A stretch of 64,000 bases of DNA, from assembly GCA_964016885.1 (NCBI GenBank), contig OZ024743.1, forward strand, positions 107,136,001 to 107,200,000, read 5' to 3'. Every line of letters starts with the position of its first letter. The stretch's first letter is position 1. Shown in pieces: positions 11,166 to 63,312 of the stretch. A program made the position numbers and the translations under genes. Below the pieces are notes generated by a model. It searched no databases. It was not told where the DNA came from and saw nothing but the letters and a program-made list of their open reading frames with translations. The stretch is from Eledone cirrhosa. Taxonomy: Eukaryota.

Positions 11166-14100
11166 TTATACTTCTCTTAGGTCCGTGTTGTTTGTTTGGG
11201 TGTTGTTGTTGTTCCACTCATTCTTTCTGTTTAGCTTTGGTCTTCTAATTTCTATTTCACTGGCCTCTCTGATTTGCCTATCTGCTGGGTCATTCCTATG
11301 TTTAGATATTATTCTAATTTCTATGTTGTCTATGTTACCGTCATGTTGTTGTCTAGCATGTTCGTATAGTACTGACCCGTTTTTTCGTCCTTTTAGTTCC
11401 CCCCAGTGTTGGTCTATCCATTCACCTATGCTACGAGCTGTCTCACCTATGTATGTTGTTGTCGTGTTTCTGCAAGTACCCTCTGTACATCTTATGCTAT
11501 AGACTACGTTTCTAGTTTTACAGTTTATCCGGGGGTTCACCTTACATATGATACATTTCCTATTGGTACAGTGGGTTTTCTTAAAAGGGAAGGTTTTGCT
11601 GATCAGGGATTTTATGGTGGTTCCTGGCTTTTCTACCACCTTTATTTTTAAGTGGGTCTTTCTCAGGGCCTTTCTACACTGGTTAGCTAATTTCCCTCCA
11701 GGGGTGGCGTCCACAAACATGACACTCTGATATCTCTGGTTGTCGTACCATGATGTGGCCTTCCCTATCTTATGTCTAGCCCTATCTAAGCTATTCCATG
11801 ATTTGCTCCTGTATAGTGGGCAAATTCCTTTCATGTCCAGTTCTATGAGGGTCTTATACTTTTCCATGGCTCCTTCGTATACTCTGACTCTGTCTCTTTG
11901 GTTGTAGCCAGAGAACTGCATGCGGTTGATGAAGTGTTGGATGTGTCCTTCCATTTCTGTTGGGTCGCACATGCTGGACACATTCTTCATCACTCGTACC
12001 AAATCTGCGATCAGAATATTAAACTTAGCACTACTGGACATTGCTGAGTTTTTGAGTATCAGGTATTTGGAGGCCATGGGTTTAGCATAGTGTGAGTGGA
12101 GAATTTGGGCTCTCTCGTCTATAGTGTTAATCCAGAGTTCTGTGTCTAATACAGGTAGTCTATTGTTAGGGTGTTTGGAAGGGAAGTCTATAGTTACAGT
12201 TATACTCTGGTGTATGGAATTAGCTATCTGCTGGATGCTTTCCATCGTGCTACGTTCTAAATCAAACTTGTTAGTGCTCTCTAGTGGGGGTGTTCTTATA
12301 ACTATATTGATATCGTCTACATAACGAGAGTACATGATGAGGTCTATGGAGCTTTCATTAAGGAGATCTTTAAGTCTCCTTTCCCACCATACCATGAAAA
12401 GGTTGGCAACATCACCAGCTATGCTGACGCCGATGGCTGCTCCCTCATTTTGGGTGTAGATTTTCTCATTGAACTTAAATATGTGGCCCTTTAGGGTAGT
12501 TTTGATACTAGCCCCTATTGCATGTGCGACCATTTTTCTTACCTGATCAGTGTTTTGGGGGGTCCGTATAGCTTTGGTCCACCCAATCCACCTTCCTATG
12601 GGAGTCTTTTTAGCCATTGAGGTTATGGTGGGGGGTCTACCTCTTATAGGTCTACTAGGGCAGAAACATCTAAGGTCATGGCTGTCTAGGTAGTCAGTGT
12701 CGTAGGTAAGTCTAAGTAGGAGGCCCAGTTCGTCTGTGTCGACGTCGCAGAACTCCACCTCACTCTCAATGATCATCTCCACACATCTTTTCACAGCAAA
12801 ATCAATGTTAATGGATGGGTACAGTGACACCACATCCATGCTGCCTATTATGCAGTTGGATAGGCTCCTGTTTTTGTTGCACTCACTGATTCTGCTGAGG
12901 AGGTCCTCTGTACTTTCACATACATCTGGGGACATTTTGATTATGGGGCGTATAACCATTGAGAGGAAGTAGGAGATCCTGTAGTTGCTAGCTATATTAG
13001 CTCCGCATACGGGTCTTGTTGGTGGTCCTGTTGTCGGGTCGTCGACTGTCTTGTGGTCTTTGCGGAGCCCATACAAGGGTGGTATGCCATTGTTAGACGC
13101 CTGGAAGTTGTTGGCAGTGCGTCTGCTTGGCTTTAGGATGTCAGTCCACATCATCATGTGAGCGTTGAGGATTTTTTCTCTCCCATCGTGTGTTAGTTGT
13201 GCAACTTCGCTCGTGTTGGCATTGTCTCGATGTAGTTCGGCATGCTATCTATTGACATCCTACCAGACTTATCTGTGGGTAGACACACTACCTCACCATC
13301 CCTTGTGCGCTGCTTGAGGCTAACCAAGCCTTCTACAGGTTTTATCCCAAGTTGTTGGGCCTCTGGTCTGCTCTGTCTCATAGTGTACCTGTCTATTACT
13401 TGTCTAATCTTATTTCTAGCTATGGTGAACTGTGCCTCCGTCTCGTCATCTATTTGCTGTGGTATGCAAACTCTTTTATTAAAGGGTAACCTCGTAGGAT
13501 AGATATTACCCATCTTATATGTTTTGTCAGCTGGGTTGAAAAATAGTTTCTCTAAGGGGTTGTCGTTATTTCTATCGTCATAGTTGTGTGTGTTGCTATT
13601 ATTGTTATCATGGTGGTTGTTGTTGTTTCTATCATTAGCATTAATATTATTATTGTTATGATTGCTAGATGTATTGTTGTTTACTTCACCGTTATTGTTG
13701 TTGTTGTTACTGCTATTTCTACCATTGTGGTTGTTACTATTATTATGTTTCTTGTTTTTGTTGATGTTGCTACATGTACTATTTCCATTATTACCACTGT
13801 GGTTATTGTTGTTGTTGTTGTTCGTATTGTTACCGTTATTACTACTGTGGTCACTGTTGCTGTGTCTGTGGTTAACGTTTCTATTATTATTATTATTGTG
13901 GTTGTTGTTGTTCTGTCTATCGCTAGTATTATTACCATTATCACTATTTCTCACTTTCCTGCCATTGTTATGGTTATGGCTGTTATTTCTATACCCAGAG
14001 TTATTGTTTATATTACTACTACCGTTATTATTGTTGTTGTTGTTTACCTTTGCATTCCAACGTATTTTGTGAAACACTTTTCCAGCTCCGTTTTGCATTC

Positions 14101-14784: not shown

Positions 14785-15289
14785 ATTTGCGTAATATTGC
14801 CAGAATTAATAACAGAACACACTCACTGTTTGGTTGGTTTTCGCTTCTCGCTGTCTTTTATATATATATATCTGCGATCTAACTTACTCGGTCCTCAATG
14901 TTGCCATTGACTGACCGGCGGTCAAAAATAATACAGATACAATATAGACAAACACATATATATATAGTTTACATAATTTACATAAATCTTTCGTTGCACA
15001 TCTGCAACATCGTCAGTGGTGTTATATTCATTGTTCCTCCTGTTGTGTTGTATGTCTACGCCATTTTTTTTTGTTCAGTCTGTCTATATATTTATTTATT
15101 TATTTGCTTGTTTGTTTATCTTATTTTATTTTGTCTTCTTTGCGCATGCGTTTGCGTGTGTGTATAGTGTTATGTGTGATGTGTGACTAGTGTGTATAGT
15201 GTTGTGTCTGCTGGGTGACTAGTGTGTGTTTATGTGCTTGTGTATGTATTTATTTATCTTATTTTATTTTATTTAATTTACTTATTTAT

Positions 15290-16557
15290 TTATACTTCTC
15301 TTAGGTCCGTGTTGTTTGTTTGGGTGTTGTTGTTGTTCCACTCATTCTTTCTGTTTAGCTTTGGTCTTCTAATTTCTATTTCACTGGCCTCTCTGATTTG
15401 CCTATCTGCTGGGTCATTCCTATGTTTAGATATTATTCTAATTTCTATGTTGTCTATGTTACCGTCATGTTGTTGTCTAGCATGTTCGTATAGTACTGAC
15501 CCGTTTTTTCGTCCTTTTAGTTCACCCCAGTGTTGGTCTATCCTTTCACCTATGCTACGAGCTGTCTCACCTATGTATGTTGTTGTCGTGTTTCTGCAAG
15601 TACCCTCTGTACATCTTATGCTATAGACTACGTTTCTAGTTTTACAGTTTATCCGGGGGTTCACCTTACATATGATACATTTCCTATTGGTACAGTGGGT
15701 TTTCTTAAAAGGGTAGGTTTTGCTGATCAGGGATTTTATGGTGGTTCCTGGCTTTTCTACCACCTTTATTTTTAAGTGGGTCTTTCTCAGGGCCTTTCTA
15801 CACTGGTTAGCTAATTTCCCTCCAGGGGTGGCGTCCACAAACATAACACTCTGATATCTCTGGTTGTCGTACCATGATGTGGCCTTCCCTATCTTATGTC
15901 TAGCCCTATCTAAGCTATTCCATGATTTGCTCCTGTATAGTGGGCAAATTCCTTTCATGTCCAGTTCTATTAGGGTCTTATACTTTTCCATGGCTCCTTC
16001 GTATACTCTGACTCTGTCTCTTTGGTTGTAGCCAGAGAACTGCATGCGGTTGATGAAGTGTTGGATGTGTCCTTCCATTTCTGTTGGGTCGCACATGCTG
16101 GACACATTCTTCATCACTCGTACCAAATCTGCGATCAGAATATTAAACTTAGCACTACTGGACATTGCTGAGTTTTTGAGTATCAGGTATTTGGAGGCCA
16201 TGGGTTTAGCATAGTGTGAGTGGAGAATTTGGGCTCTCTCGTCTTTAGTGTTAATCCAGAGTTCTGTGTCTAATACAGGTAGTCTATTGTTAGGGTGTTT
16301 GGAAGGGAAGTCTATAGTTACAGTTATACTCTGGTGTATGGAATTAGCTATCTGCTGGATGCTTTCCATCGTGCTACGTTCTAAATCAAACTTGTTAGTG
16401 CTCTCTAGTGGGGGTGTTCTTATAACTATATTGATATCGTCTACATAACGAGAGTACATGATGAGGTCTATGGAGCTTCCATTAAGGAGATCTTTAAGTC
16501 TCCTTTCCCACCATACCATGAAAAGGTTGGCAACATCACCAGCTATGCTGACGCCGA
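15290..16557 (-). pseudogene. 5'-truncated PLE RT/GIY-YIG copy forming the upstream pseudo-LTR
   Basis: Near-identical to 11166-12433. The N-terminal MRIFSLPSCVSCATS of the listed ORF is read-through across the inversion junction. Confidence 0.92.
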
Positions 16558-18603
16558 GCGAAGTTGCACAACTAACACACGATGGGAGAGAAAAAATCCT
16601 CAACGCTCACATGATGATGTGGACTGACATCCTAAAGCCAAGCAGGCGCACTGCCAACAACTTCCAGGCGTCTAACAATGGCATACCACCCTTGTATGGG
16701 CTCCGCAAAGACCACAAGACAGTCGACGACCCGACAACAGGACCACCAACAAGACCCGTATGCGGAGCTAATATAGCTAGCAACTACAGGATCTCCTACT
16801 TCCTCTCAATGGTTATACGCCCCATAATCAAGATGTCCCCAGATGTATGTGAAAGTACAGAGGACCTCCTCAGCAGAATCAGTGAGTGCAACAAAAACAG
16901 GAGCCTATCCAACTGCATAATAGGCAGCATGGATGTGGTGTCACTGTACCCATCCATTAACATTGATTTTGCTGTGAAAAGATGTGTGGAGATGATCATT
17001 GAGAGTGAGGTGGAGTTCTGCGACGTCGACACAGACGAACTGGGCCTCCTACTTAGACTTACCTACGACACTGACTACCTAGACAGCCATGACCTTAGAT
17101 GTTTCTGCCCTAGTAGACCTATAAGAGGTAGACCCCCCACCATAACCTCAATGGCTAAAAAGACTCCCATAGGAAGGTGGATTGGGTGGACCAAAGCTAT
17201 ACGGACCCCCCAAAACACTGATCAGGTAAGAAAAATAGTCGCACATGCAATAGGGGCTAGTATCAAAACTACCCTAAAGGGCCACATATTTAAGTTCAAT
17301 GAGAAAATCTACACCCAAAATGAGGGAGCAGCCATCGGCGTCAGCATAGCTGGTGATGTTGCCAACCTTTTCATGGTATGGTGGGAAAGGAGACTTAAAG
17401 ATCTCCTTAATGAAAGCTCCATAGACCTCATCATGTACTCTCGTTATGTAGACGATATCAATATAGTTATAAGAACACCCCCACTAGAGAGCACTAACAA
17501 GTTTGATTTAGAACGTAGCACGATGGAAAGCATCCAGCAGATAGCTAATTCCATACACCAGAGTATAACTGTAACTATAGACTTCCCTTCCAAACACCCT
17601 AACAATAGACTACCTGTATTAGACACAGAATTCTGGATTAACACTATAGACGAGAGAGCCCAAATTCTCCACTCACACTATGCTAAACCCATGGCCTCCA
17701 AATACCTGATACTCAAAAACTCAGCAATGTCCAGTAGTGCTAAGTTTAATATTCTGATCGCAGATTTGGTACGAGTGATGAAGAATGTGTCCAGCATGTG
17801 CGACCCAACAGAAATGGAAGGACACATCCAACACTTCATCAACCGCATGCAGTTCTCTGGCTACAACCAAAGAGACAGAGTCAGAGTATACGAAGGAGCC
17901 ATGGAAAATTTATAAGACCCTCATAGAACTGGACATGAAAGGAATTTGCCCACTATACAGGAGCAAATCATGGAATAGCTTAGATAGGGCTAGACATAAG
18001 ATAGGGAAGGCCACATCATGGTACGACAACCAGAGATATCAGAGTGTCATGTTTGTGGACGCCACCCCTGGAGGGAAATTAGCTAACCAGTGTAGAAAGG
18101 CCCTGAGAAAGACCCACTTAAAAATAAAGGTGGTAGAAAAGCCAGGAACCACCATAAAATCCCTGATCAGCAAAACCTACCCTTTTAAGAAAACCCACTG
18201 TACCAATAGGAAATGTATCATATGTAAGGTGAACCCCCGGATAAACTGTAAAACTAGAAACGTAGTCTATAGCATAAGATGTACAGAGGGTACTTGCAGA
18301 AACACGACAACAACATACATAGGTGAGACAGCTCGTAGCATAGGTGAATGGATAGACCAACACTGGGGGGAACTAAAAGGACGAAAAAACGGGTCAGTAC
18401 TATACGAACATGCTAGACAACAACATGACGGTAACATAGACAACATAGAAATTAGAATAATATCTAAACATAGGAATGACCCAGCAGATAGGCAAATCAG
18501 AGAGGCCAGTGAAATAGAAATTAGAAGACCAAAGCTAAACAGAAAGAATGAGTGGAACAACAACAACACCCAAACAAACAACACGGACCTAAGAGAAGTA
18601 TAA
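16555..18603 (+). pseudogene. Inverted 5'-truncated PLE RT/GIY-YIG copy
   Basis: Near-identical reverse complement of 11166-13213, with a 1-bp frameshift at ~17910 (atggaaaatttataag vs atggaaaagtataag). Confidence 0.92.
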
Positions 18604-19126
18604 ATAAATAAGTAAATTAAATAAAATAAAATAAGATAAATAAATACATACACAAGCACATAAACACACACTAGTCACCCAGCAGACACAACACTATACC
18701 AACTAGTCACACATCACACATAACAGTATACACACACGCAAACGCATGCGCAAAGAAGACAAAATAAAATAAGATAAACAAACAAGCAAATAAATAAATA
18801 AATATATAGACAGACTGAACAAAAAAAAATGGCGTAGACATACAACACAACAGGAGGAACAATGAATATAACACCACTGACGATGTTGCAGATGTGCAAC
18901 GAAAGATTTATGTAAATTATGTAAACTATATATATATGTGTTTGTCTATATTGTATCTGTATTATTTTTGACCGCCGGTCAGTCAATGGCAACATTGAGG
19001 ACCGAGTAAGTTAGATCGCAGATATATATATATAAAAGACAGCGAGAAGCGAAAACCAACCAAACAGTGAGTGTGTTCTGTTATTAATTCTGGCAATATT
19101 ACGCAAATATGACCCTCCCCAAATAT

Positions 19127-20678: not shown

Positions 20679-20721
<43 letters not shown>

Positions 20722-20878
20722 TGGAATAAATGCTCTGAAATAGCGATATATATGTGAATATAGACACAGAATATTCGAAAATATTCTGTATGTTTATAAT
20801 AAACATTTTGAAGACCTAATCGCTATAGAATAGAATACGTCACGTATTACAATTAGATTCTCGATAAAAGCAAGGGAA

Positions 20879-20922
20879 GTAAGTCTACGCGTTTCATTCT
20901 TGTTAGAATTCATCAGGACTAC
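20879..20922 (-). ncRNA. Minimal type I hammerhead ribozyme (array unit 1)
   Basis: Minus strand: gtagtc CTGATGA attct-aaca-agaat GAAA cgcg TA gacttac. Stems I and II pair, stem III is palindromic CGCG, GUA cleavage triplet. Confidence 0.88.
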
Positions 20923-21189
20923 ATATCCAGTGCTTTCATCGAGAATGACACAGCTAGAGACTTATAGAATACTTAGCTGTGTACAGGAACTGGTTTGAAA
21001 GAGCGGTTGCCGGTCCGGCAGAAATTAGAAATTGGAATAAATGCTCTGAAATAGCGATATATATGTGAATATAGACACAGAATATTCGAAAATATTCTGT
21101 ATGTTTATAATAAACATTTTGAAGACCTAATCGCTATAGAATAGAATACGTCACGTATTACAATTAGATTCTCGATAAAAGCAAGGGAA

Positions 21190-21233
21190 GTAAGTCTACG
21201 CGTTTCATTCTTGTTAGAATTCATCAGGACTAC
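21190..21233 (-). ncRNA. Minimal type I hammerhead ribozyme (array unit 2)
   Basis: Identical to 20879-20922. Confidence 0.88.
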
Positions 21234-21577
21234 ATATCCAGTGCTTTCATCGAGAATGACACAGCTAGAGACTTATAGAATACTTAGCTGTGTACAGGAA
21301 CTGGTTTGAAAGAGCGGTTGCCGGTCCGGCAGAAATTAGAAATTGGAATAAATGCTCTGAAATAGCGATATATATGTGAATATAGACACAGAATATTCGA
21401 AAATATTCTGTATGTTTATAATAAACATTTTGAAGACCTAATCGCTATAGAATAGAATACGTCACGTATTACAATTAGATTCTCGATAAAAGCAAGGGAA
21501 AACATTTTGAAGACCTAATCGCTATAGAATAGAATACGTCACGTATTACAATTAGATTCTCGATAAAAGCAAGGGAA

Positions 21578-21621
21578 GTAAGTCTACGCGTTTCATTCTT
21601 GTTAGAATTCATCAGGACTAC
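21578..21621 (-). ncRNA. Minimal type I hammerhead ribozyme (array unit 3)
   Basis: Identical to 20879-20922. Confidence 0.88.
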
Positions 21622-22509
21622 ATATCCAGTGCTTTCATCGAGAATGACACAGCTAGAGACTTATAGAATACTTAGCTGTGTACAGGAACTGGTTTGAAAG
21701 AGCGGTTGCCGGTCCGGCAGAAATTAGAAATTGGAATAAATGCTCTGAAATAGCGATATATATGTGAATATAGACACAGAATATTCGAAAATATTCTGTA
21801 TGTTTATATATATATGCATACATACATATAAATATATAAAATATATATATTTATATGTATATATGATAGATATATAAAAGTATAAATCTGGGTAAATATT
21901 AGTTAAATACAACTTAAAATATATTAAACATACACACACAGGAATGTATGCATATACACACATATATATACATACGTATATCCCTAATTATATATATATA
22001 TATAAAATTCTACCGAAAAAATTATGTAGTTAAATAGAAAAATATTCGTTCATACTCCATGTTTTAGAGCTGGATAACAAAACACCAGGGGCGGAAATAT
22101 ACGTTAGTTTAATCAATAGATTATAAACATAGATTATATGTATGTTTCACTTACACTTATCGATTAAAAACAGCGTGTTTTAGAAATTAAAAACATACAC
22201 TAAAAATGTACAATAATAGTTTTTACCAAACAAAAATATTTCATAAACTTTTTATTAATTATAAACGACAAAGTTTCTAATTAAGCTACTAGACTTTCTG
22301 AACAATAATAAATAAATTATGGAGCTTGCCATTATGTATTTGGTTGTATTTTGTTGTATATATTTTCAAGATTATGTATATTTCTCCGTATTATTAATGT
22401 AACTATCGCGTACGGTAATTAGATTTTCTTTTTTGTAATTTATTTATTTATCTAAACAAACATGCATATATATATATGTATATATATATAGTGTATATTA
22501 CACTATCTA

Positions 22510-32215: not shown

Positions 32216-32268
32216 GAGCTTCCTGAAGATTTCATCTGAATGAAACAGTACTAGTCCCGTAGAAGCTC
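32216..32268 (+). ncRNA. Type I hammerhead ribozyme (family A variant) in a ~31975-32356 pLTR-like element
   Basis: gagcttc CTGAAGA tttc-atct-gaat GAAA cag..ccg TA gaagctc, with a 7-bp stem I. The downstream tail (tactctgccatgtattgagtaccttacttactgtggtta...caacccgg) is shared with the 53600 and 62400 copies. Confidence 0.8.
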
Positions 32269-32857
32269 CTTCTATACAATAAACATTTTTTTACTCTGCC
32301 ATGTATTGAGTACCTTACTTACTGTGGTTATCCCCGACTCAACCCGGGACCTACGTATATATATATATATATATATACATACATTCAACCATTCCTTTCA
32401 AAGGGTCATGAATTCAACTAAAGTGAATTACTTTTCACCTTAACATCATATGAAAAAAACAATTTGATTGGTTAGTTCTTCAACTACCTCCAAATAAGGA
32501 CAAGATACTAACATACTACGAATTCTGAATAAAATTATTATTGCTTTTGAATACAGCTGGTGATATGCATGTAAGTAAATATTCTCTTTATTTGATATCT
32601 TGTAACTGACCTTACATAGTTCAATAACAAAGTATAGCTACAATGTATTATCATCACCTAGAAACGATCGTAAAGCAGTGAAGTATATTTCTAATGACTT
32701 GATTTTTTATTTCATTGTTTTAACTTATATCATGACTCTGTTTTCCTTTTAATGTTTTATTGTTTACCGGGATTTAGCTTAACCTACAACATGTTCAACA
32801 TATGGATTGCACTGTGTTCTTCATGCAGAATAGACCCCACAACTTACCGTGGATATC

Positions 32858-42149: not shown

Positions 42150-42254
42150 TACTCCAATATAAACTTACATAGGAATACAAGTGAAATCATAAACTCGTCA
42201 TCTACGTAAACCTCCTGTTGAGTCAAAAAACGTCGTACGCTAACTATTCATAAT

Positions 42255-42438
42255 TGTTTCTACCTTAGGCACAAGGCCAGCAAATACGCAGTACATTACT
42301 GGTACTTTATTTTATCGACCCCGTAAGGATGAAAGGCAAAGTTAACCTCGACGGGATTTGAACTCAGACCGTAAAGGAACGTAACTATGCTAGAAAGCAT
42401 GGCGTCCGACCCTCTACCGATACTGCCAATTCACCACT
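42255..42438 (-). mobile_element. SINE family 1 with 15-bp TSD
   Basis: TSD ctaactattcataat (42240) / ctaactatccataat (42439). Confidence 0.9.
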
Positions 42439-42946: not shown

Positions 42947-43385
42947 TTAATAAAATGTGATACCAAGTAAAGCGAGCAAATGCATGTAGCAATATTTATA
43001 CCACAAACAGGTCGAAGACTAACCTGGACCATCTCGAGTAGGTAAGATTCAATAGAAATGGATAAAAATTTCGGGAAGACACACTACAAGTTGCATAATG
43101 GATATGCAAGTCATACTTGCATTTTCTAGATGGAGGCTTTGTTCCGTATAATCCAACGTGGTTCAGTCAGGAGATATTGAGGCTTTCTACCATTGTAGTA
43201 AATTCGCCAGTCACCTCACGTGACGTTTCTCAAAAAAAGAAGGTCTGGTTTGCCGAAACGTTGGCGAGTAAATTCAGGGTTTCAAGAAAGAAATTATCAC
43301 AGCCTCAAATAAAATCTCTCAACTATCTTTTATAAACAAAAATAACTAACACCTTATCAATTGAATGAAAGTGTGACATTAATAA

Positions 43386-44185
43386 TCATAATTGTTTCAA
43401 GATTAGGCACAAGGTCAGCAATTACCCCAGTGCATAACTGGTGCTTTATCATATCGATCCCGTAAGGCTGAAAGGCAAAACTATCCCCGGCAGTATTTGA
43501 TCTCAGAACATAAAGGGCCATAACTCTATGATGCAATACGTGGTGTCTGACGCTCTACCGATACAATATAGGTATGAATCGAAGTTATAGCCACAGTGGT
43601 GCAGATACCATTGGGATTGTTTCGTAACCCTTGAAGACCAACGAAGTAAACACACAAAGTTAAGAATGTGTAACGACAAGAAAAGCGGCCAAATATATGT
43701 GGCCATACATATATCAGAACAACGATTATTACCAATAGGTCGGAAACTAACCTCTTTTTACTTTGGACAAAAATGTTTTAATTGTTGGCACATTTCAATG
43801 CATTATGTCTACCTCAAACAATTTGATTGGTACTGCTTTACTGCGGGTACAACTTCGATTTACGGGTAGAGAGTCGGACAACCTGCTTCATGGCAATTTA
43901 CGTTCCGAGTTCAAATCCAGCCAAGGTTAGCTGTGCCTTTCATCTTGTGGAGTAGATAAAATAAATTACCAGCTACGCACTGGCGTCGATTTAATCCACT
44001 TTTCCCACCCCCAAAATTGATGGCCTTTTGCCTATATAACAAATCATTACTGCCCTTGCTATTCTGAGTTCAAATCCCACCGAGGTTAACTTTGCCTTTC
44101 ATCATTACGGGGTCGATAAAATAAAGTACCAGTAATGCACTGGTAAATTGCTGGCCTTTGTGACAAAAATAGAAACAATTATTAT
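43386..44185. mobile_element. Cluster of SINE family-1 copies (43386-43565 -, 43860-44045 +, 44055-44185 +)
   Basis: Each carries the B box gagttcaaatcc and/or the gcctttcatc...gataaaataa core. Confidence 0.78.
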
Positions 44186-47793: not shown

Positions 47794-49226
<1,433 letters not shown>

Positions 49227-49241
49227 TATATATATATATAT

Positions 49242-49466: not shown

Positions 49467-49743
49467 GAAAGTGAGGTTTTTTTACAAAATGAAAAGTAAC
49501 CGAAGTGTCCTACACGAGTGAGTGTATAAAGAAAAAAAGATGAAATCGAAAATACAATTGGAGTCTTATTTTTTTTTTAATTATATATATTTATTTGGTT
49601 TCTTTACCGGTTCGCAGTTCTTCTATTTCATCTTTTTTTCTTTCCTGATGATTTCTAAAGAATAAAACAGTTCTAGTCCTGTAGAATCTCATCTATATTA
49701 AAACTGTTATACTCTATATATATTTTTTTTTTTCTAGGGCGGG

Positions 49744-51720: not shown

Positions 51721-51787
51721 AGTTTTAATATAGATGAGATTCTACAGGACTAGAACTGTTTCATTTTTTAGAAATCATTAGAAATCT
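51721..51787 (-). mobile_element. Family-A HHR fragment (mutated core CTAATGA)
   Basis: agttttaatatagatgagattctacaggactagaactgtttc matches 49102-49145 and 62462-62503. Confidence 0.8.
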
Positions 51788-51898
51788 GGCTTGGTAAAAT
51801 AAATATTGTGGTATTTATAACTTTTCCGGTGGTAGGAGAGGGTGGGGAGTGGGGTGGGTGGAGGTCATTGGTTGAAAGAAAAGGGAATTCAGTAAAAG

Positions 51899-51948
<50 letters not shown>

Positions 51949-53540: not shown

Positions 53541-53684
53541 AAATCATCAGGAATCCTGATGTTTTCTAAAGAATGAAACAGTTCTAGTCCTGTTGAATAT
53601 CATCTATTTTAAAACTTTTATACTCTGCTATGTATAGAGTACCTTACTTGCCGTTGTTACCACCGATTCAACACGGAATAACGT
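53541..53684 (+). mobile_element. Family-A HHR mini-element (degenerate) with a short inverted 5' stub
   Basis: aaatcatcaggaatcctgatgttttc fold-back, then the family-A body ending gattcaacacggaataacg|TA. Confidence 0.8.
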
Positions 53685-53780: not shown

Positions 53781-56780
53781 AGTAGTTTAGAAAGCCACAA
53801 CAATGCAGAGGGAAATCTCGAGGTAGGAAGTGAATGATAGATAGGAGAAATAGGAGAAAGTGAAAATTGAGAGAGACAAAGATGAAAACAAAACAAAGGT
53901 AGAAGGGTTACCGTAGTGGAGATTTAATCCCAATATTTCGGGCTCACGCCCATCAACGGGGGAAAGTTCCAAAAGGGGGGGAACAGGCTAAGCGGAGAAA
54001 GTTGTGATGTCGTTAAAACAGGAATGCCGTTATGGGGAGAAAATTATTTAAAATTTAAATGAGGGAAAGAATGCGCGTGCGCGTGATAGGCTGTGGCAAA
54101 AGCTACTGACCAAATGGGTTAAATCAAGAGGGTGCGCTAGCGTGTGAAAGCCGTAAAATATGTGTGTGTAAATATATATGTGTGTGTAACTGTGTGTGTA
54201 TATGTGTAAGTGTGTATATGTGTGAGTGTGTGTGTGTGTGAAAGATAGTGGGCTGTAGAAGCTGGAAATCAAAGGGTGTGAAAGGTGGTAGGTTGTAAAA
54301 CATGTGTGCGTGTATAAATATAGATGTGTGTGTGTAAGCGTATGGGTATACATGTGTGTGTAACTGTGTGTGTATATGTGTGAGTGCGTGTGTGTGTGAA
54401 AGATAGTGGGCTGTAGAAGCTGGAAATCAAAGGGTGTGAAGGTGGTAGGTTGTAAAAACATGTGTGCGTGTATAAATATAGATGTGTGTGTGTATGCGTA
54501 TGGGTAAGCATATACGTGCGTGTGTGTGAAAATAGCAGGCCGTAAGGGCTGTGAATGGTCACTATGGTTAAGTTAGCCATGTCAGCTCATTTCTCTCAGC
54601 CCGGTCGTTAAGTGGGGGTCTGAGGTTCTTAATAACAAGTGCTTCCTTTATCCTTAAGGATCCGATGCTGCGTTCAGTCGCTAGGACTGTGACCAAGGGT
54701 CTACCCTGTGGGTTTCCGCATTTAAGGATGTGTTTACGGAAGGAAGATGCGTTGGTGTTGATGTGTTCCTTGATACGAACATGTAGGGGTCGGATGGTGC
54801 TACCTATGTAAAACTTGTTACATTTATCGCATTGAATCTTATATACGACATAGGTGCGTAGGCAATCTGTCCCCCGTATCGGGCAGTTGCTGAGGGAACA
54901 CGTCCCATCTGACTCGTCGGGTTTGTTGGAGAGGCATCTTCGCAGCGAAGGTCCTGTGTGGGCCAAATGTATGTCAAGTCCCTCCGTCCGTGTGGCCCTG
55001 CGGATGGCGTTCGTGGTATATTCACTCAGGTGGGGGATTTTAAAGAAGCACCTGCTTTTATTTAAGTTTCTACTGGGTGTCTGTCTATTGGGTCTGGGGT
55101 CTCTAATTCCGTTAATCAGTCGCTTGGGATATCCATTAGACCTGAGTAGATTACGGAATTGCGTTGTATGGTTGAGACCACCCATCGGGTCGCTGCATCT
55201 GTTAGTGATCCGTGTCAGTTCATTTAGGACATAGCCTCTCTTAGTGTTGTTGGGGAGGGCTGAGTTGTAATGCACAAATAAGTCCTTGCACGCTGCTTTG
55301 CGGTAGAAGGTGGTGTTTATGTCTCCTTCTTCCGAGATGTTGATACGGAAGTCGAGGAGGGCGAGTGACCCGTCTTTTCCTGGGTGTTCGATGGTGAAAT
55401 CGACGTGATGGTCAGTATCGTTGAAGATTTGGTGAATTTCATTCGCCATCTCCCGGGAAGAAGTAAGTATCAGGATGTCATCAACGTATCTGGAGTAGAA
55501 GGCGACGGCGTTGTGTTGGCAGGTATTGAGTGCCTTGCGTTCCAGGTGGTCCATGTACGAGATCGCAAGTATGCCGGACAGACTAGAGCCCATAGGTAGC
55601 CCAGAGATTTGTTTGTACGTGTGGCCGAGGAAATAGAAGAGTGCATTATCCACAACGAAGGAGAGGAGTTGGTGGATGTCCGTGTGTGTGAGTCCGAAGC
55701 AGTGTAAGTTAGATGCTCGGACTCGTTCGGTCAACAGGTCGACGGCTGGGGATGCTGGTACGGAGGTATAAAGGGCGACCACATCAAGACTGAAGGCATA
55801 ACCGTTGTCCTCTCTGGTGTTGGGCGCCAGATGGTGTAGTCGCTCCAAGACCTCCTTTGAGCTGCAGACGTGGGCTGGTAGTGTGTGTAGAATGGGTTTC
55901 AGTAGTGTGGAGAGCAGCCACGATATTTTGTAGAGTGGGCCCTCCACGCTAGAGACAATGGGCCTGATTTTCAAATCGGGTCCTTGTTTATGTGTTTTAA
56001 CCAGGTGGTAGAAGGTGGGTAGTTTGCTGTTTCAAGTCATTATGTTGTTTTTTACCTTCTTTGGCAGTTTTCGTTGGACACAGATGTTAGTCCATATGGT
56101 GTTAATGCCTTCCTCGATTAGAGTCGAGGAGGTCCCTGTGACTTTCGAGTAGAGGCTGTGGTCATTAAGATGTTGGAGAGCTAAGTTGTTGTAGGTCTCT
56201 CTCGAGATGACACAGAATTCTTTCCCCTTGTCAGAGGGAAGGTACACAAGGTTCCTGGATCTTAGGTTGGTGAGAGTATTAAATTGTGCATTGGTGAGGT
56301 TGCGTTTATTGTGTGTGTGTGTGTGTTGGGAAAGGATGTTAGAGATAGAATGTTTCAACCTGAGTAGTTTAGTGTCAAGTTCGTGGTTGGTGGGTGGGGG
56401 GTGGAGTGGGTTGTCGAGGTGGTACGTGGGGAGCGTGGGGTGGGTTGTGGGGTTGTAATCGATCTCGGTGTTGTTTTGGATGGCGGTTAGCCATTTCAGT
56501 TGATATGCTGTCCGACAGAAGTTGGTTTCGATGTCGAGTTTCAGTCTATCATCGAGACGCTGTGTAATGATGAACTTGGGTCCGAGGCGCAGAAGTTCGA
56601 GTTCGTCGTTGGTGAGGGTACCGGTTAGGTCGGTAACGAGGTGTGAAGCATCGTTGGTAGGTAGTTCGATGTTGGGGGGTGTAGCGGAGGGTGTTGTATA
56701 GCTGTTGCCCCTGGTGTGGTTGTAGTCGGTCCGTCTGTGGGAGCGGATGTTGTCATTGTAGTATTTGTTTACAGTCCATA
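53777..56780 (-). mobile_element. Second Penelope-like element (5'-truncated), in (TA)n
   Basis: RT + GIY-YIG coding region. The 3' UTR has a 158-bp internal duplication (54237/54395) and an HHR-like remnant at 53928-53963. Confidence 0.92.
54568..56775 (-). pseudogene. PLE RT-GIY-YIG polyprotein with one in-frame TGA (56032-56034)
   Basis: ORFs 56032-56787 and 54568-55974 are in the same frame, bridged by NSKLPTFYHLVKTHK. Motifs: LRLGPKF, PSDKG, RPIVS, SLDVVALYTSV, GLPMGS, YSRYVDDI, VVYKIQCDKC..FYIGST.RPLHVRIKEH. Confidence 0.92.
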
Positions 56781-59655: not shown

Positions 59656-60724
59656 GTGTGTGTGCGCGTGTGTGTGTATGTATGTTAGTATGTATATATA
59701 TATATATCATAATCGTCATAATTTTGTACATGCCTTCTATATAAATATATATACGTGTTTGTGTGTGTGAGGGGGTGTGAGTGTGTGTGTAAACGCGTGA
59801 GTGTATGTGTGTGTATGTGTGTGTGTGTGAGTGTAAAAAGGAAACCGAAATAACTAAACAAATGACAGTACTTGGAAGAAATATATTCGTTTAACACTTG
59901 AAATAGTAGTAAGGTAGTCATAAAGTTTCAGAAACTACTCCTTCATTAGAAGATATAAATAAATATTAAAGAGTGATAATAGGAAAGAACGAGAGAAAAT
60001 GGGGAAAAATATAGGGAAAAAACAGGAAGTAATAATATATTATTAAAAATATATAATGTATTGCGCAACTCAAGTCCGAAGAGCGTGTTTGAATATAAAT
60101 ATTAAGGCAGGTAAGTACGTTTCCATATACCCGAGGACCAACTTGTTCAACCTGTGCCGATGAAAATCTGGTTATAAATGAAGGTGTATGCCTGACTGCG
60201 ACGCCAAGCTCTTTCGTCTTTTGTTTAGAAAGTTTTCCCAAGGGTGTATCTGGCAAGAAATGTTACTTTTCTCTCTGGAATTTATAAGGGATATGTCAAA
60301 TCAGGTCTCTAGCTTGGTTGCTACTTCTATGGTAAAATTTGTCATTGGGATAAGCTGGCAGAAAGTGGACAGTAGATGTGGGGTGCCAGATGTTGGTAGG
60401 AGTCAAGAGAAGGAAATAATGCTAGGTGCACTTACGAATTTCATATGCATTGTTAAACACGTGGTGAACATTCACGAGGTCCCAGACACATATCTAAGAT
60501 TTTTATCCATTTCTGTCGATTATCTACAATTTGCATTTATTGTATATGTGATTTTAAACTATTGCCACAAAGCTTTGCTCGTTTTATTCATGGTGTCACT
60601 CTTTCTTAACTTGGTCTTTATTCAGGAAGGAAATGTAATAACTTTCCACACCATTGAGTGCTGTGTTACTGCATCAAACAATTTCGATTGGTATCTGCAC
60701 TATTGTGGTTACAAGTCCAATGTA

Positions 60725-60853
60725 TACTGAGTTAAAATCCCGCCGAGGTTAACTTTGTCTTTCATCGTTACGGGGTCGATAAAATAAAGCACCATTAATG
60801 CACTGGGTTATTGCTGGCCTTGTGCCAAACGTAGAAACAATTATTATTATTAT
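60725..60853 (+). mobile_element. SINE family 1, 5'-truncated
   Basis: ctgagttaaaatcccgccgaggttaactttg...gtagaaacaattattatt. Confidence 0.85.
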
Positions 60854-61374
60854 TCTCATTGTCTCATTTAATTGATTAATAGCGTATTTTTCATTTGTTT
60901 ATAAGTGCGAACTGTGAGCCTTTTTAGTCTGTTAAAGAAAGCCTCTTTGTTCACGCCGTGAATTCAGCTGCCAATGTTCGGCAATAAGATCTTCCTTTTT
61001 TTTGTCTCGTCCAAACTAAACTACGTCGGGTAAAATTGAACGAACAAGTGGTGACGCAATGATTTCCCGTTCCATAGCTAGGTGAACATACGAATTGCAT
61101 ATGCATTGTGCAACTTGTGGTGCACCATATTGAAAACTTTTAACGATTTCGATCGGTTATTTATTTATTTTGAGATGGTCCTTTATCTGTTTGTATTTAT
61201 CGTTGGTTATGGTTATAAACTGTGGCCACCTAAACGTAATAGTTTTATTCATGGTGTCACGCTTTCTTAACTCTGTGTTTCTCAGGAGGAAAATGTACTA
61301 ACCCTGGTTTGAGACAGCCTCAAACATTTCAGTTGGTATCTAGTCTACTGCGGCTACAACATCGATATATACCT

Positions 61375-62303: not shown

Positions 62304-62392
<89 letters not shown>

Positions 62393-62478
62393 TAAGTTAT
62401 TCCGGGTTGAATCGGAGGTAACCACAGTAAGTAAGGTACTCAATACATAGCAGAGTATAAAAGTTTTAATATAGATGT

Positions 62479-62527
62479 GATTCTACAGGACTGGAACTGT
62501 TTCATTCTTTAGAAATCATCAGGAATC
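62479..62527 (-). ncRNA. Type I hammerhead ribozyme (family A)
   Basis: Minus strand: gattc CTGATGA tttc-taaa-gaat GAAA cag-ttccagtc-ctg TA gaatc. Confidence 0.82.
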
Positions 62528-62799
62528 TCGATGATTCTCAGATAAGTACGCTATAAGTACGCTATAAGATCTTTTTGCCGAACATTGGCAGTTGAATTCA
62601 AGGCGTGAACAAAGAGGCTTTAACAGACTAAAAAGGCTCACAACTACCGCTTATAAACAACAGATAAGTACGCTACTAATCAATTAAATGAGGCAATGAG
62701 AATAATAATAATTGTTTCTACGTTTGGCACAAGGCCAGCAATAACCCAGTGCATTACTTGTGCTTTATTTTATCGACCCCGTAACGATGAAAGAATCTC

Positions 62800-62850
62800 A
62801 GATTCCTGATGATTTCTAAAGAATGAAACAGTTCTAGTCCTGTAGAATCT
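62800..62850 (+). ncRNA. Type I hammerhead ribozyme (family A)
   Basis: agattc CTGATGA tttc-taaa-gaat GAAA cag-ttctagtc-ctg TA gaatct. Confidence 0.82.
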
Positions 62851-62860
62851 CATCTATATT

Positions 62861-62909
<49 letters not shown>

Positions 62910-62938: not shown

Positions 62939-63312
62939 TTGCAAGTAAATTCGGCCTACTTATATGAAAAGATGAGTTAGCAAAGCACTCGATAAGATAG
63001 GGCGTTAGAGTAATAACATACGGTTAAATAGCTTGACAAATCGAACATTGTGGTAGGCGAATCTAACACACAATATATACCAAAGTAACGATAGAACTAA
63101 TCAGGTTGAGAAAAGTACACCTGTTGCAAGTAAATTCGGCCTACTTATATGAAATGATGAGGTAGGTAGCAAAGCACTCGATAAGATAGGGCCTTAGAGT
63201 AATAACATACGTTTAAATAGCTTGACAAATCGAACATTGTGGTAGGCGAATCTAACACACAATATATACCAAAGTAACGATAGAACTAATCAGGTTGAGA
63301 AAAGTACACCTG
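62939..63312. repeat. Tandem dimer of a ~185-bp unit between (TA)n tracts
   Basis: ttgcaagtaaattcggcctac...gagaaaagtacacctg at 62939 and 63124. Confidence 0.92.

Follow-up and report, generated by a model that had tools for sequence, protein, structure and literature searches.

Introduction

Inverted units of endonuclease-bearing Penelope-like elements, as described in PMC8557442 and PMC11167929, share with the locus reported here a 5'-truncated inverted copy, an extension on one arm, a hammerhead, and an AT-rich target. How such units form was called open in PMC8557442. According to PMC11167929, the Penelope-like protein of Anolis cleaves both strands of AT-rich DNA, extends them, and starts at two internal sites, which account for the one-sided tail, and ribozyme cleavage is reported not to be needed in this system. 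In Adineta vaga, the Penelope terminal repeats (pLTRs) enclose unrelated host DNA, for which self-priming and template jumps were invoked (PMC3846280). L1 insertions that show a local inversion or an inverted duplication contain a near-target copy primed by 2-nt homology after resection within ~10 kb, and the inverted duplication of nearby DNA is explained there by resection and self-annealing (10.1101/2024.12.14.628481). Insertions made by polymerase theta are described with repeated short flank-templated units, 1-5-nt priming, and aborted extensions (PMC5068794, PMC2895639), all of which recur at our locus, and retrozymes of the non-LTR kind are non-autonomous, Penelope-linked, and equipped with a type I hammerhead (PMC7229834, 10.64898/2026.07.22.740005), like the arm family described below. 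Here we follow up an earlier note on a locus in Eledone cirrhosa (genome size 3.0 Gb) at which two hammerhead-bearing arms enclose a copy of neighbouring DNA.

Two outward-facing arms of one family

The locus occupies positions 62304-62905 of the window, by which we mean the whole stretch of 64,000 nucleotides that was analysed (G000:C4:107136001-107200000). It is bordered by a (CT)n(TA)n microsatellite on the left target side (62304-62390) and by (TA)20 on the right (62866-62905). The earlier note had seen two arms of the same hammerhead family pointing outward into (TA)n, and we could locate both with their CTGATGA..GAAA cores: a long arm of 137 nt, including the optional 3' extension, on the minus strand (62392-62528, core 62500-62522) and a short arm of 65 nt on the plus strand (62800-62864, or 73 nt by BLAST, which runs into the TA repeat; core 62806-62828). 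Each arm starts just 5' of its hammerhead-like core, both are intact up to their normal 5' ends, and the long arm is 98-99% identical to its nearest relatives. No (TA)n lies between the arms and the cargo, and no target-site duplication is readable in the TA. The structure of the locus is real.

The arms belong to a non-coding family whose full copy is ~480 bp long and which has the features of non-autonomous Penelope-like elements: an inverted 5'-truncated copy at the 5' end, a one-sided tail (an extension of ~65-75 nt), and an AT-rich or microsatellite target. The type I hammerhead motif, consisting of CUGAUGA, GAAA, a 3-bp stem III, GUA, and a 6-bp stem I, is complete in 257 of 381 motif hits, and the left arm forms 5/6 stem I pairs. 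Rfam returned no hammerhead at the gathering score, with three chance hits at E up to 10, and the minimum-energy fold of the arm differs from a hammerhead (z ~0); the motif is thus predicted from sequence, and the arm hammerhead is putative, with membership assigned by motif. There is no tandem array of the non-LTR retrozyme kind at the locus, and the sampled loci of the family are head-to-head or single.

The window contains several other elements. Five older copies or relatives of the arm family lie at 49046-49234, 53542-53682, 51721-51937, 49642-49724, and 32217-32347, two of which have the usual cargo-free head-to-head junction. A 487-aa open reading frame on the minus strand (54571-56031) encodes a reverse transcriptase (RT) domain (E 1e-10) and a GIY-YIG domain (E 3e-4, below cut-off); it has no match to the arm-family body, and its predicted domains assign it to a different family of Penelope-like elements; a search for the autonomous driver of the arm family did not find one. 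At 11169-13244 (-) and ~15150-18650 lie open frames resembling RT (E 1e-4) whose direct and inverted ends are repeated; they look like a tandem and inverted retroelement unit. Tandem units of 311/388 bp at 20720-21843 share 95-100% identity, with one CTGATGA..GAAA core per unit on the minus strand, and probably form a retrozyme-like array of another family. Just beyond the locus (62939-63312), a TA-associated repeat that also occurs beside L222 is present as two tandem copies of 189 bp (96%).

The cargo is an inverted copy of a local donor

Between the arms, 62566-62794 is a 229-nt copy, on the minus strand, of 60758-60993. The earlier note had described it as an inverted and moderately diverged copy from about 1.6 kb away, and this holds: the cargo aligns to the reverse complement of the donor at 90.3% over 236 columns, with 16 substitutions and two indels, and the gap between the two is 1,573 bp. 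The donor (+) is made up of a SINE's 3' part (to ~60852) and of the old dispersed element in which this SINE is nested (~60853-60993); in the copy, the old-element part spans 62566 to ~62700 and the SINE tail ~62700 to 62794. We take the SINE in donor and copy to be cephalopod-like by its look. Aligned to its own genome, as the earlier note had proposed, 62566-62794 found 60758-60993 as its best match and its only other full-length match among the 40 candidates scored out of 1,379. Two SINE variants that the note had named, GTAACGATGA and CCAAACGTAG, are each confined within the window to donor and copy. Copy and donor have 4/5 rare SINE letters in common, and 128 other SINE matches have at most two.

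The note had also read the copied junction as that of a SINE tail with unique flanking DNA. The junction is there; its uniqueness is not. The donor flank belongs to an old dispersed element that is matched by all 40 scored candidates, 39 of them other copies at 73-84%, and the same SINE junction is found in five of 15 fetched element copies (L221, L223, L226, L228, and L235). The lead to this element was a paralogue at 43232-43506 (-), a further composite of SINE and element that is 72-74% identical and not the donor. The segment is therefore a dispersed repeat, which the note had given as one half of what would speak against its reading; the other half, a better match elsewhere, was not found, the best composite relative being 82% identical to the copy versus 90% for the local donor. 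Within the window, copies of the old element lie at 60421-60727, 61077-61372, 43232-43564, and 42245-42423. One of its subfamilies contains the SINE, nested at a fixed AAT position, and has apparently been dispersed as a composite.

Because the local match exceeds all others scored and rare SINE letters are shared, we conclude on sequence grounds that the donor is local. What was copied, however, is old repeat DNA and not unique host sequence. We consider it very improbable that the cargo derives instead from another, closer composite copy, now unassembled, lost, or present as a divergent allele, with the local match reflecting shared ancestry. In favour of such a source, the composite is dispersed, the distance between copy and donor exceeds what the age of the arms would lead one to expect, the filler described below disagrees with the present donor, and the genome search skips very common words and missed even the arm (a 65-nt short-arm query gave no match). 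However, 14 other fetched copies that could be matched reach no more than 82%, the non-SINE part of the donor as a genome query matched at the two local places only, and in a genome of 3 Gb a distant source would hardly land 1.6 kb from its nearest relative by chance. Were the source a divergent allele of this locus, the capture would be local all the same.

The donor stretch 60832-61271 is identical in public run X8. Runs X2 and X3 have almost no cover of the non-SINE part of the donor, run X1 has none past its edge, and in runs X6 and X7 even this non-SINE part is missing. In the contigs of X6, X7, X8, and X1, positions 62539-62554 are uncovered at a single-copy depth of ~5, which makes them uninformative on presence or absence. 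An assembly artefact was rejected in view of the 16 differences between donor and copy and of the changes on both lineages. A Pol III transcript of the SINE was considered as the template on account of a T8 run that lies 3 nt from the start of the copy; it is a weak candidate, since the SINE copy starts just before a motif that we take to be B-box-like.

Filler, stutter, and the age of the parts

On the plus strand, the long arm ends in GGAATCT and is followed by CGATGATT and CTCAGAT, which by their sequence are pieces of the arms. This filler (62529-62543) resembles the arm-derived fillers of sister copies L033, L181, L184, and L337. Its terminal CAGAT overlaps the start of a stutter (62539-62568, +), in which a 15-mer identical to the cargo-internal 62661-62675 is followed by two re-primed units, giving 2.5 copies of an 11-nt unit and ending in AAG, which overlaps the first bases of the 229-nt copy. 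The earlier note had placed a stuttered filler at 62539-62565 and derived it from the 15-mer at 62661. The identity was borne out, with a 15-nt match in 0/1000 Markov-shuffled copies (longest 14), and so was the stutter; its start was set too late, as the arm-derived piece already begins at 62529. At the right junction (62793-62803, +), GA/ATCTC/AGAT comprises a 2-nt GA overlap with the donor and a fold-back remnant of the short arm, such that the end of the copy passes through GA into GAATCTC-AGATTCC, the short arm. Every template switch at the locus involves 2-5 nt of microhomology. The 8-mer TCTCAGAT occurs at both junctions (62536-62543 and 62796-62803), which ties the two ends to one event.

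The filler 15-mer matches only the copy in full and differs from the present donor at four positions, with a longest match of 8 nt. It follows that either the donor mutated at this site or the new copy served as template for the filler.

Off the family column majority are 3/137 letters in the long arm and 1/72 in the short arm (family median 1.5% in 118 long arms). Copy and donor differ at 16/222 positions (7.2%), compared to 1-2% between the arms and the family majority, and a common age of arms and copy has P ~0.07. Nine of the 16 substitutions fall within 26 nt of the donor (60887-60912; cluster P 0.0003), and P for a common age rises to 0.51 only if they are counted as one event. The tension between the ages of arms and copy is mild. 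This cluster overlaps the site that templated the stutter. Outgroup polarisation of the element part assigns four substitutions and a short insertion to the donor and five substitutions to the copy and leaves five ambiguous, with one of the polarised changes shifting under hand alignment.

These junctions could also have arisen in two steps: a head-to-head element inserted first, the centre of its palindrome broke later, and host microhomology-mediated repair inserted the copy and doubled TCTCAGAT. Removing the cargo and one TCTCAGAT indeed restores a junction like that of L033, stuttered microhomology-primed inserts are described as typical of polymerase theta (PMC5068794, PMC2895639), and the filler agrees with the copy, not with the donor. 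Against a later break, the cargo has diverged from its donor at least as much as the arms from their family, so that no time gap shows, neither arm is truncated at its normal 5' end, and pre-tRNA at the same pivot in sister copies (see below) points to capture during reverse transcription. We regard this two-step history as unlikely, though it is the strongest of the alternatives.

Head-to-head pairs across the genome

We surveyed 266 loci of the family, a non-random sample picked by similarity or junction pattern, including 120 more from pattern lists; five duplicate or window loci were dropped, and partners at least 1.2 kb apart were counted as unpaired. Head-to-head pairs, the norm in this family, make up 185 of these loci and single arms the other 81. 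One arm of at least 125 nt is paired with a shorter one, mostly ending at 60, 67, or 73, in 181/185 pairs, which matches the one-sided tail and the two RT start sites of Penelope-like elements, and (TA)n lies outside both arms in most family loci, as it does here. One additional region (L220:4450-5600; G000:C1:304848150-304849300) has two complete head-to-head elements ~700 bp apart in one long TA tract.

Spacers are at most 16 nt long in 165 of the 185 pairs. The longer ones are element body, arm stutter, or separate insertions, save for the present locus and two with tRNA. Among the candidates rejected as cargo, the long spacers of L028, L048, and L106 have TA tracts inside and were read as separate insertions, and those of L034, L097, L109, L112, L246, L255, L264, and L266 are element body. 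The earlier note had suggested surveying other head-to-head inserts for fillers and for the distance to their donors. Fillers recur in sister copies; cargo of local DNA comparable to 62566-62794 was found in 0/184 other sampled pairs within flanks of 1.5 kb (first set) or 3 kb (second set), a search that misses donors farther away. Local capture, as at the present locus, is rare.

The frequency of single arms and the apparently older duplication are what could be said for two independent single-arm insertions on either side of a pre-existing inverted duplication. Yet many single arms have TA on their 5' side, which is absent at the present locus, and the pairing of a long with a short arm and the shared junction 8-mer speak for one event, so that we give two insertions hardly any credence.

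The two arms of a pair tend to carry the same variants: subfamily letters agree between the arms in 8/9 informative pairs, and 12 non-majority letters are common to both arms, compared to a shuffled mean of 1.2 (reached in 0/1000 shuffles). Such sharing, together with the self-priming proposed for such palindromes (PMC3846280), fits a single cDNA that made everything, in which the long-arm cDNA copied the local template, folded back into the short arm, and annealed to the TA overhang. However, double priming on one RNA would also give concordant arms, and the excess outside positions 9-30 is weak (4 vs 0.6; reached by 1/1000 shuffles). A fold-back also leaves L312 and the pairs of different families, described next, unexplained. 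We consider this variant improbable; the capture step itself would be identical.

Pre-tRNA cargo and chimeric pairs

Two sister copies have tRNA sequence at the pivot. In L312:2900-3130 (G000:C1:310432565-310432700), a pre-tRNA-Ala(AGC) lies between two family arms, with a genomic trailer and no CCA, and the cargo extends from the oligo-T terminator through a complete tRNA-Ala to the 5' leader. The left arm is a 34-nt tail only, and the right arm holds positions 1-60. The nearest parent gene by trailer is L360 on C15, two letters off; no exact parent of the trailer was found in the genome at up to one mismatch. L257 (G000:C2:319598280-319598370) has a piece of tRNA-Ala(AGC), again with no CCA, and the start of its trailer matches gene L364 on C546. 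For both cargoes, the best parent gene is located on a contig other than that of the insertion. The tRNA cargo enters or leaves by 1-4-nt overlaps, and in both copies it follows the tail-primed cDNA, which corresponds to the top strand at the present locus. Pre-tRNA at the pivot indicates jumps onto RNA, which favours a reverse transcriptase as the jumping enzyme. A tRNA-Ala copy with a trailer matching L362 also follows (TA)n directly in L359 (G000:C3:291480560-291480680), with no arm on that side, and may have arisen by retrocopying of a pre-tRNA into a TA target.

Other pairs are chimeric. In L035 and L130, a family arm is joined 5'-to-5' to the 3' end of an ORF that resembles GIY-YIG (Pfam E 0.0038, below cut-off), and in L050 and L122 to another hammerhead family. 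Together with L312, these pairs make it likely that both ends are primed separately. Short inverted copies of adjacent DNA occur at 5' junctions of L050 (43 bp), L130 (99 bp), L151 (31 bp), and L271. That of L130 is identical to the partner and adjoins the predicted ribozyme cut site. In the literature covered, which consisted mostly of open-access articles and of their main texts, we found no pre-tRNA or local DNA at a head-to-head pivot beyond PMC3846280, and PMC13580325 contains nothing on junction repair.

A probable single insertion with a template jump

With a probability of about 0.7, the locus arose by a single insertion into (TA)n with separately primed arms, in which the end of the long-arm cDNA captured local sequence 1.4-1.6 kb upstream. 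Both strands of the TA target would be cut and primed, yielding a long cDNA on the top strand and a short one on the bottom strand, and the two 3' ends would halt immediately 5' of hammerhead stem I, opposite one another across the pivot. Short aborted extensions of the top-strand end on the arms would leave CGATGATT and TCTCAGAT. This end would then prime via (C)AGAT at 60890-60894, slip twice (TA overlaps), and re-prime via AAG at 60993 so that 229 nt are copied; finally, the copied end would anneal via GA/TC to the short-arm end and be filled in. As the long-arm end lies on the top strand and primes upstream, an inverted copy is expected from the long-arm side, which fits the orientation and the side observed.

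The template may have been the top strand at the same break end, made single-stranded by resection, or a plus-strand transcript; we lean towards the resected strand over a nascent transcript. The choice of enzyme is closer still, and we only slightly favour the element RT over a host activity of the polymerase theta type. The stutter and overlaps fit polymerase theta equally well, with microhomology at each switch and repeated flank-templated units, but its inserts are usually much shorter and closer. An origin within tens of bases applies to the short fillers alone, whereas 229 nt came from 1.4-1.6 kb away.

The earlier note had proposed that nascent cDNA ends jumped templates during integration. 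In favour of one such integration are the long-short pairing norm, the lack of inner (TA)n, and the microhomologies; against a single event stand the 7.2% divergence of copy and donor versus 1-2% for the arms, the mismatch of the 15-mer to the present donor, and the mixed polarisation. Against separate priming of the arms, their concordant subfamily letters fit a fold-back of one cDNA too. The note's further suggestion, that ribozyme mini-elements may duplicate host sequence, is upheld in that a local duplicate is present, and tempered in that the cargo is old repeat DNA and the event is rare (0/184). The effect on host duplication accordingly looks small.

More tentatively, and in our view doubtfully, Penelope RT, which is related to telomerase, may in general realign on and re-copy short template stretches and jump by microhomology onto any nearby single strand, such as cellular RNA (pre-tRNA) or DNA resected over ~1-1.6 kb. 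If so, head-to-head pivots would in general preserve germline RNAs and the length of resection as a fossil record, and short inverted duplications could arise by this route.

Comparison with known systems

Where a pivot contains foreign cargo, its switch points can be read. Pairs that include pre-tRNA or a second family speak for two cDNAs, each primed on its own, and templates of resected DNA can be told apart from nascent RNA by the side on which local cargo lies, its orientation, and its distance. The main new lead lies in the pre-tRNA sister copies and chimeric pairs, which make the model of double priming and template jumps testable genome-wide.

Compared to the Penelope-like units described in PMC8557442, the arm family is non-coding, its extension is ~65-75 nt rather than 30-40, and its pivot can hold foreign cargo. 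Retrozymes, as characterised in PMC7229834 and 10.64898/2026.07.22.740005, are head-to-tail tandem units, whereas the arm family occurs mainly as dispersed head-to-head pairs or singles. The L1 cases involve a different retroelement class, in which mostly an un-extended end folds back, and are described with neither a second cDNA arm nor a stutter (10.1101/2024.12.14.628481). Polymerase theta inserts are given as mostly <25 bp, with priming no farther than 10 bp from the break, and only ~3% of them map to distant sites (PMC5068794, PMC2895639). Capture of host DNA by Penelope elements has already been published (PMC3846280), and the present locus is a rare local variant of it: the spacers described from Adineta vaga are 0.9-1.5 kb long or comprise a whole gene and lie upstream of the 3' pLTR or between direct pLTRs (PMC3846280), whereas here 229 nt lie inverted at a head-to-head pivot, 1.6 kb from their donor, with switch points that can be read at nucleotide level.
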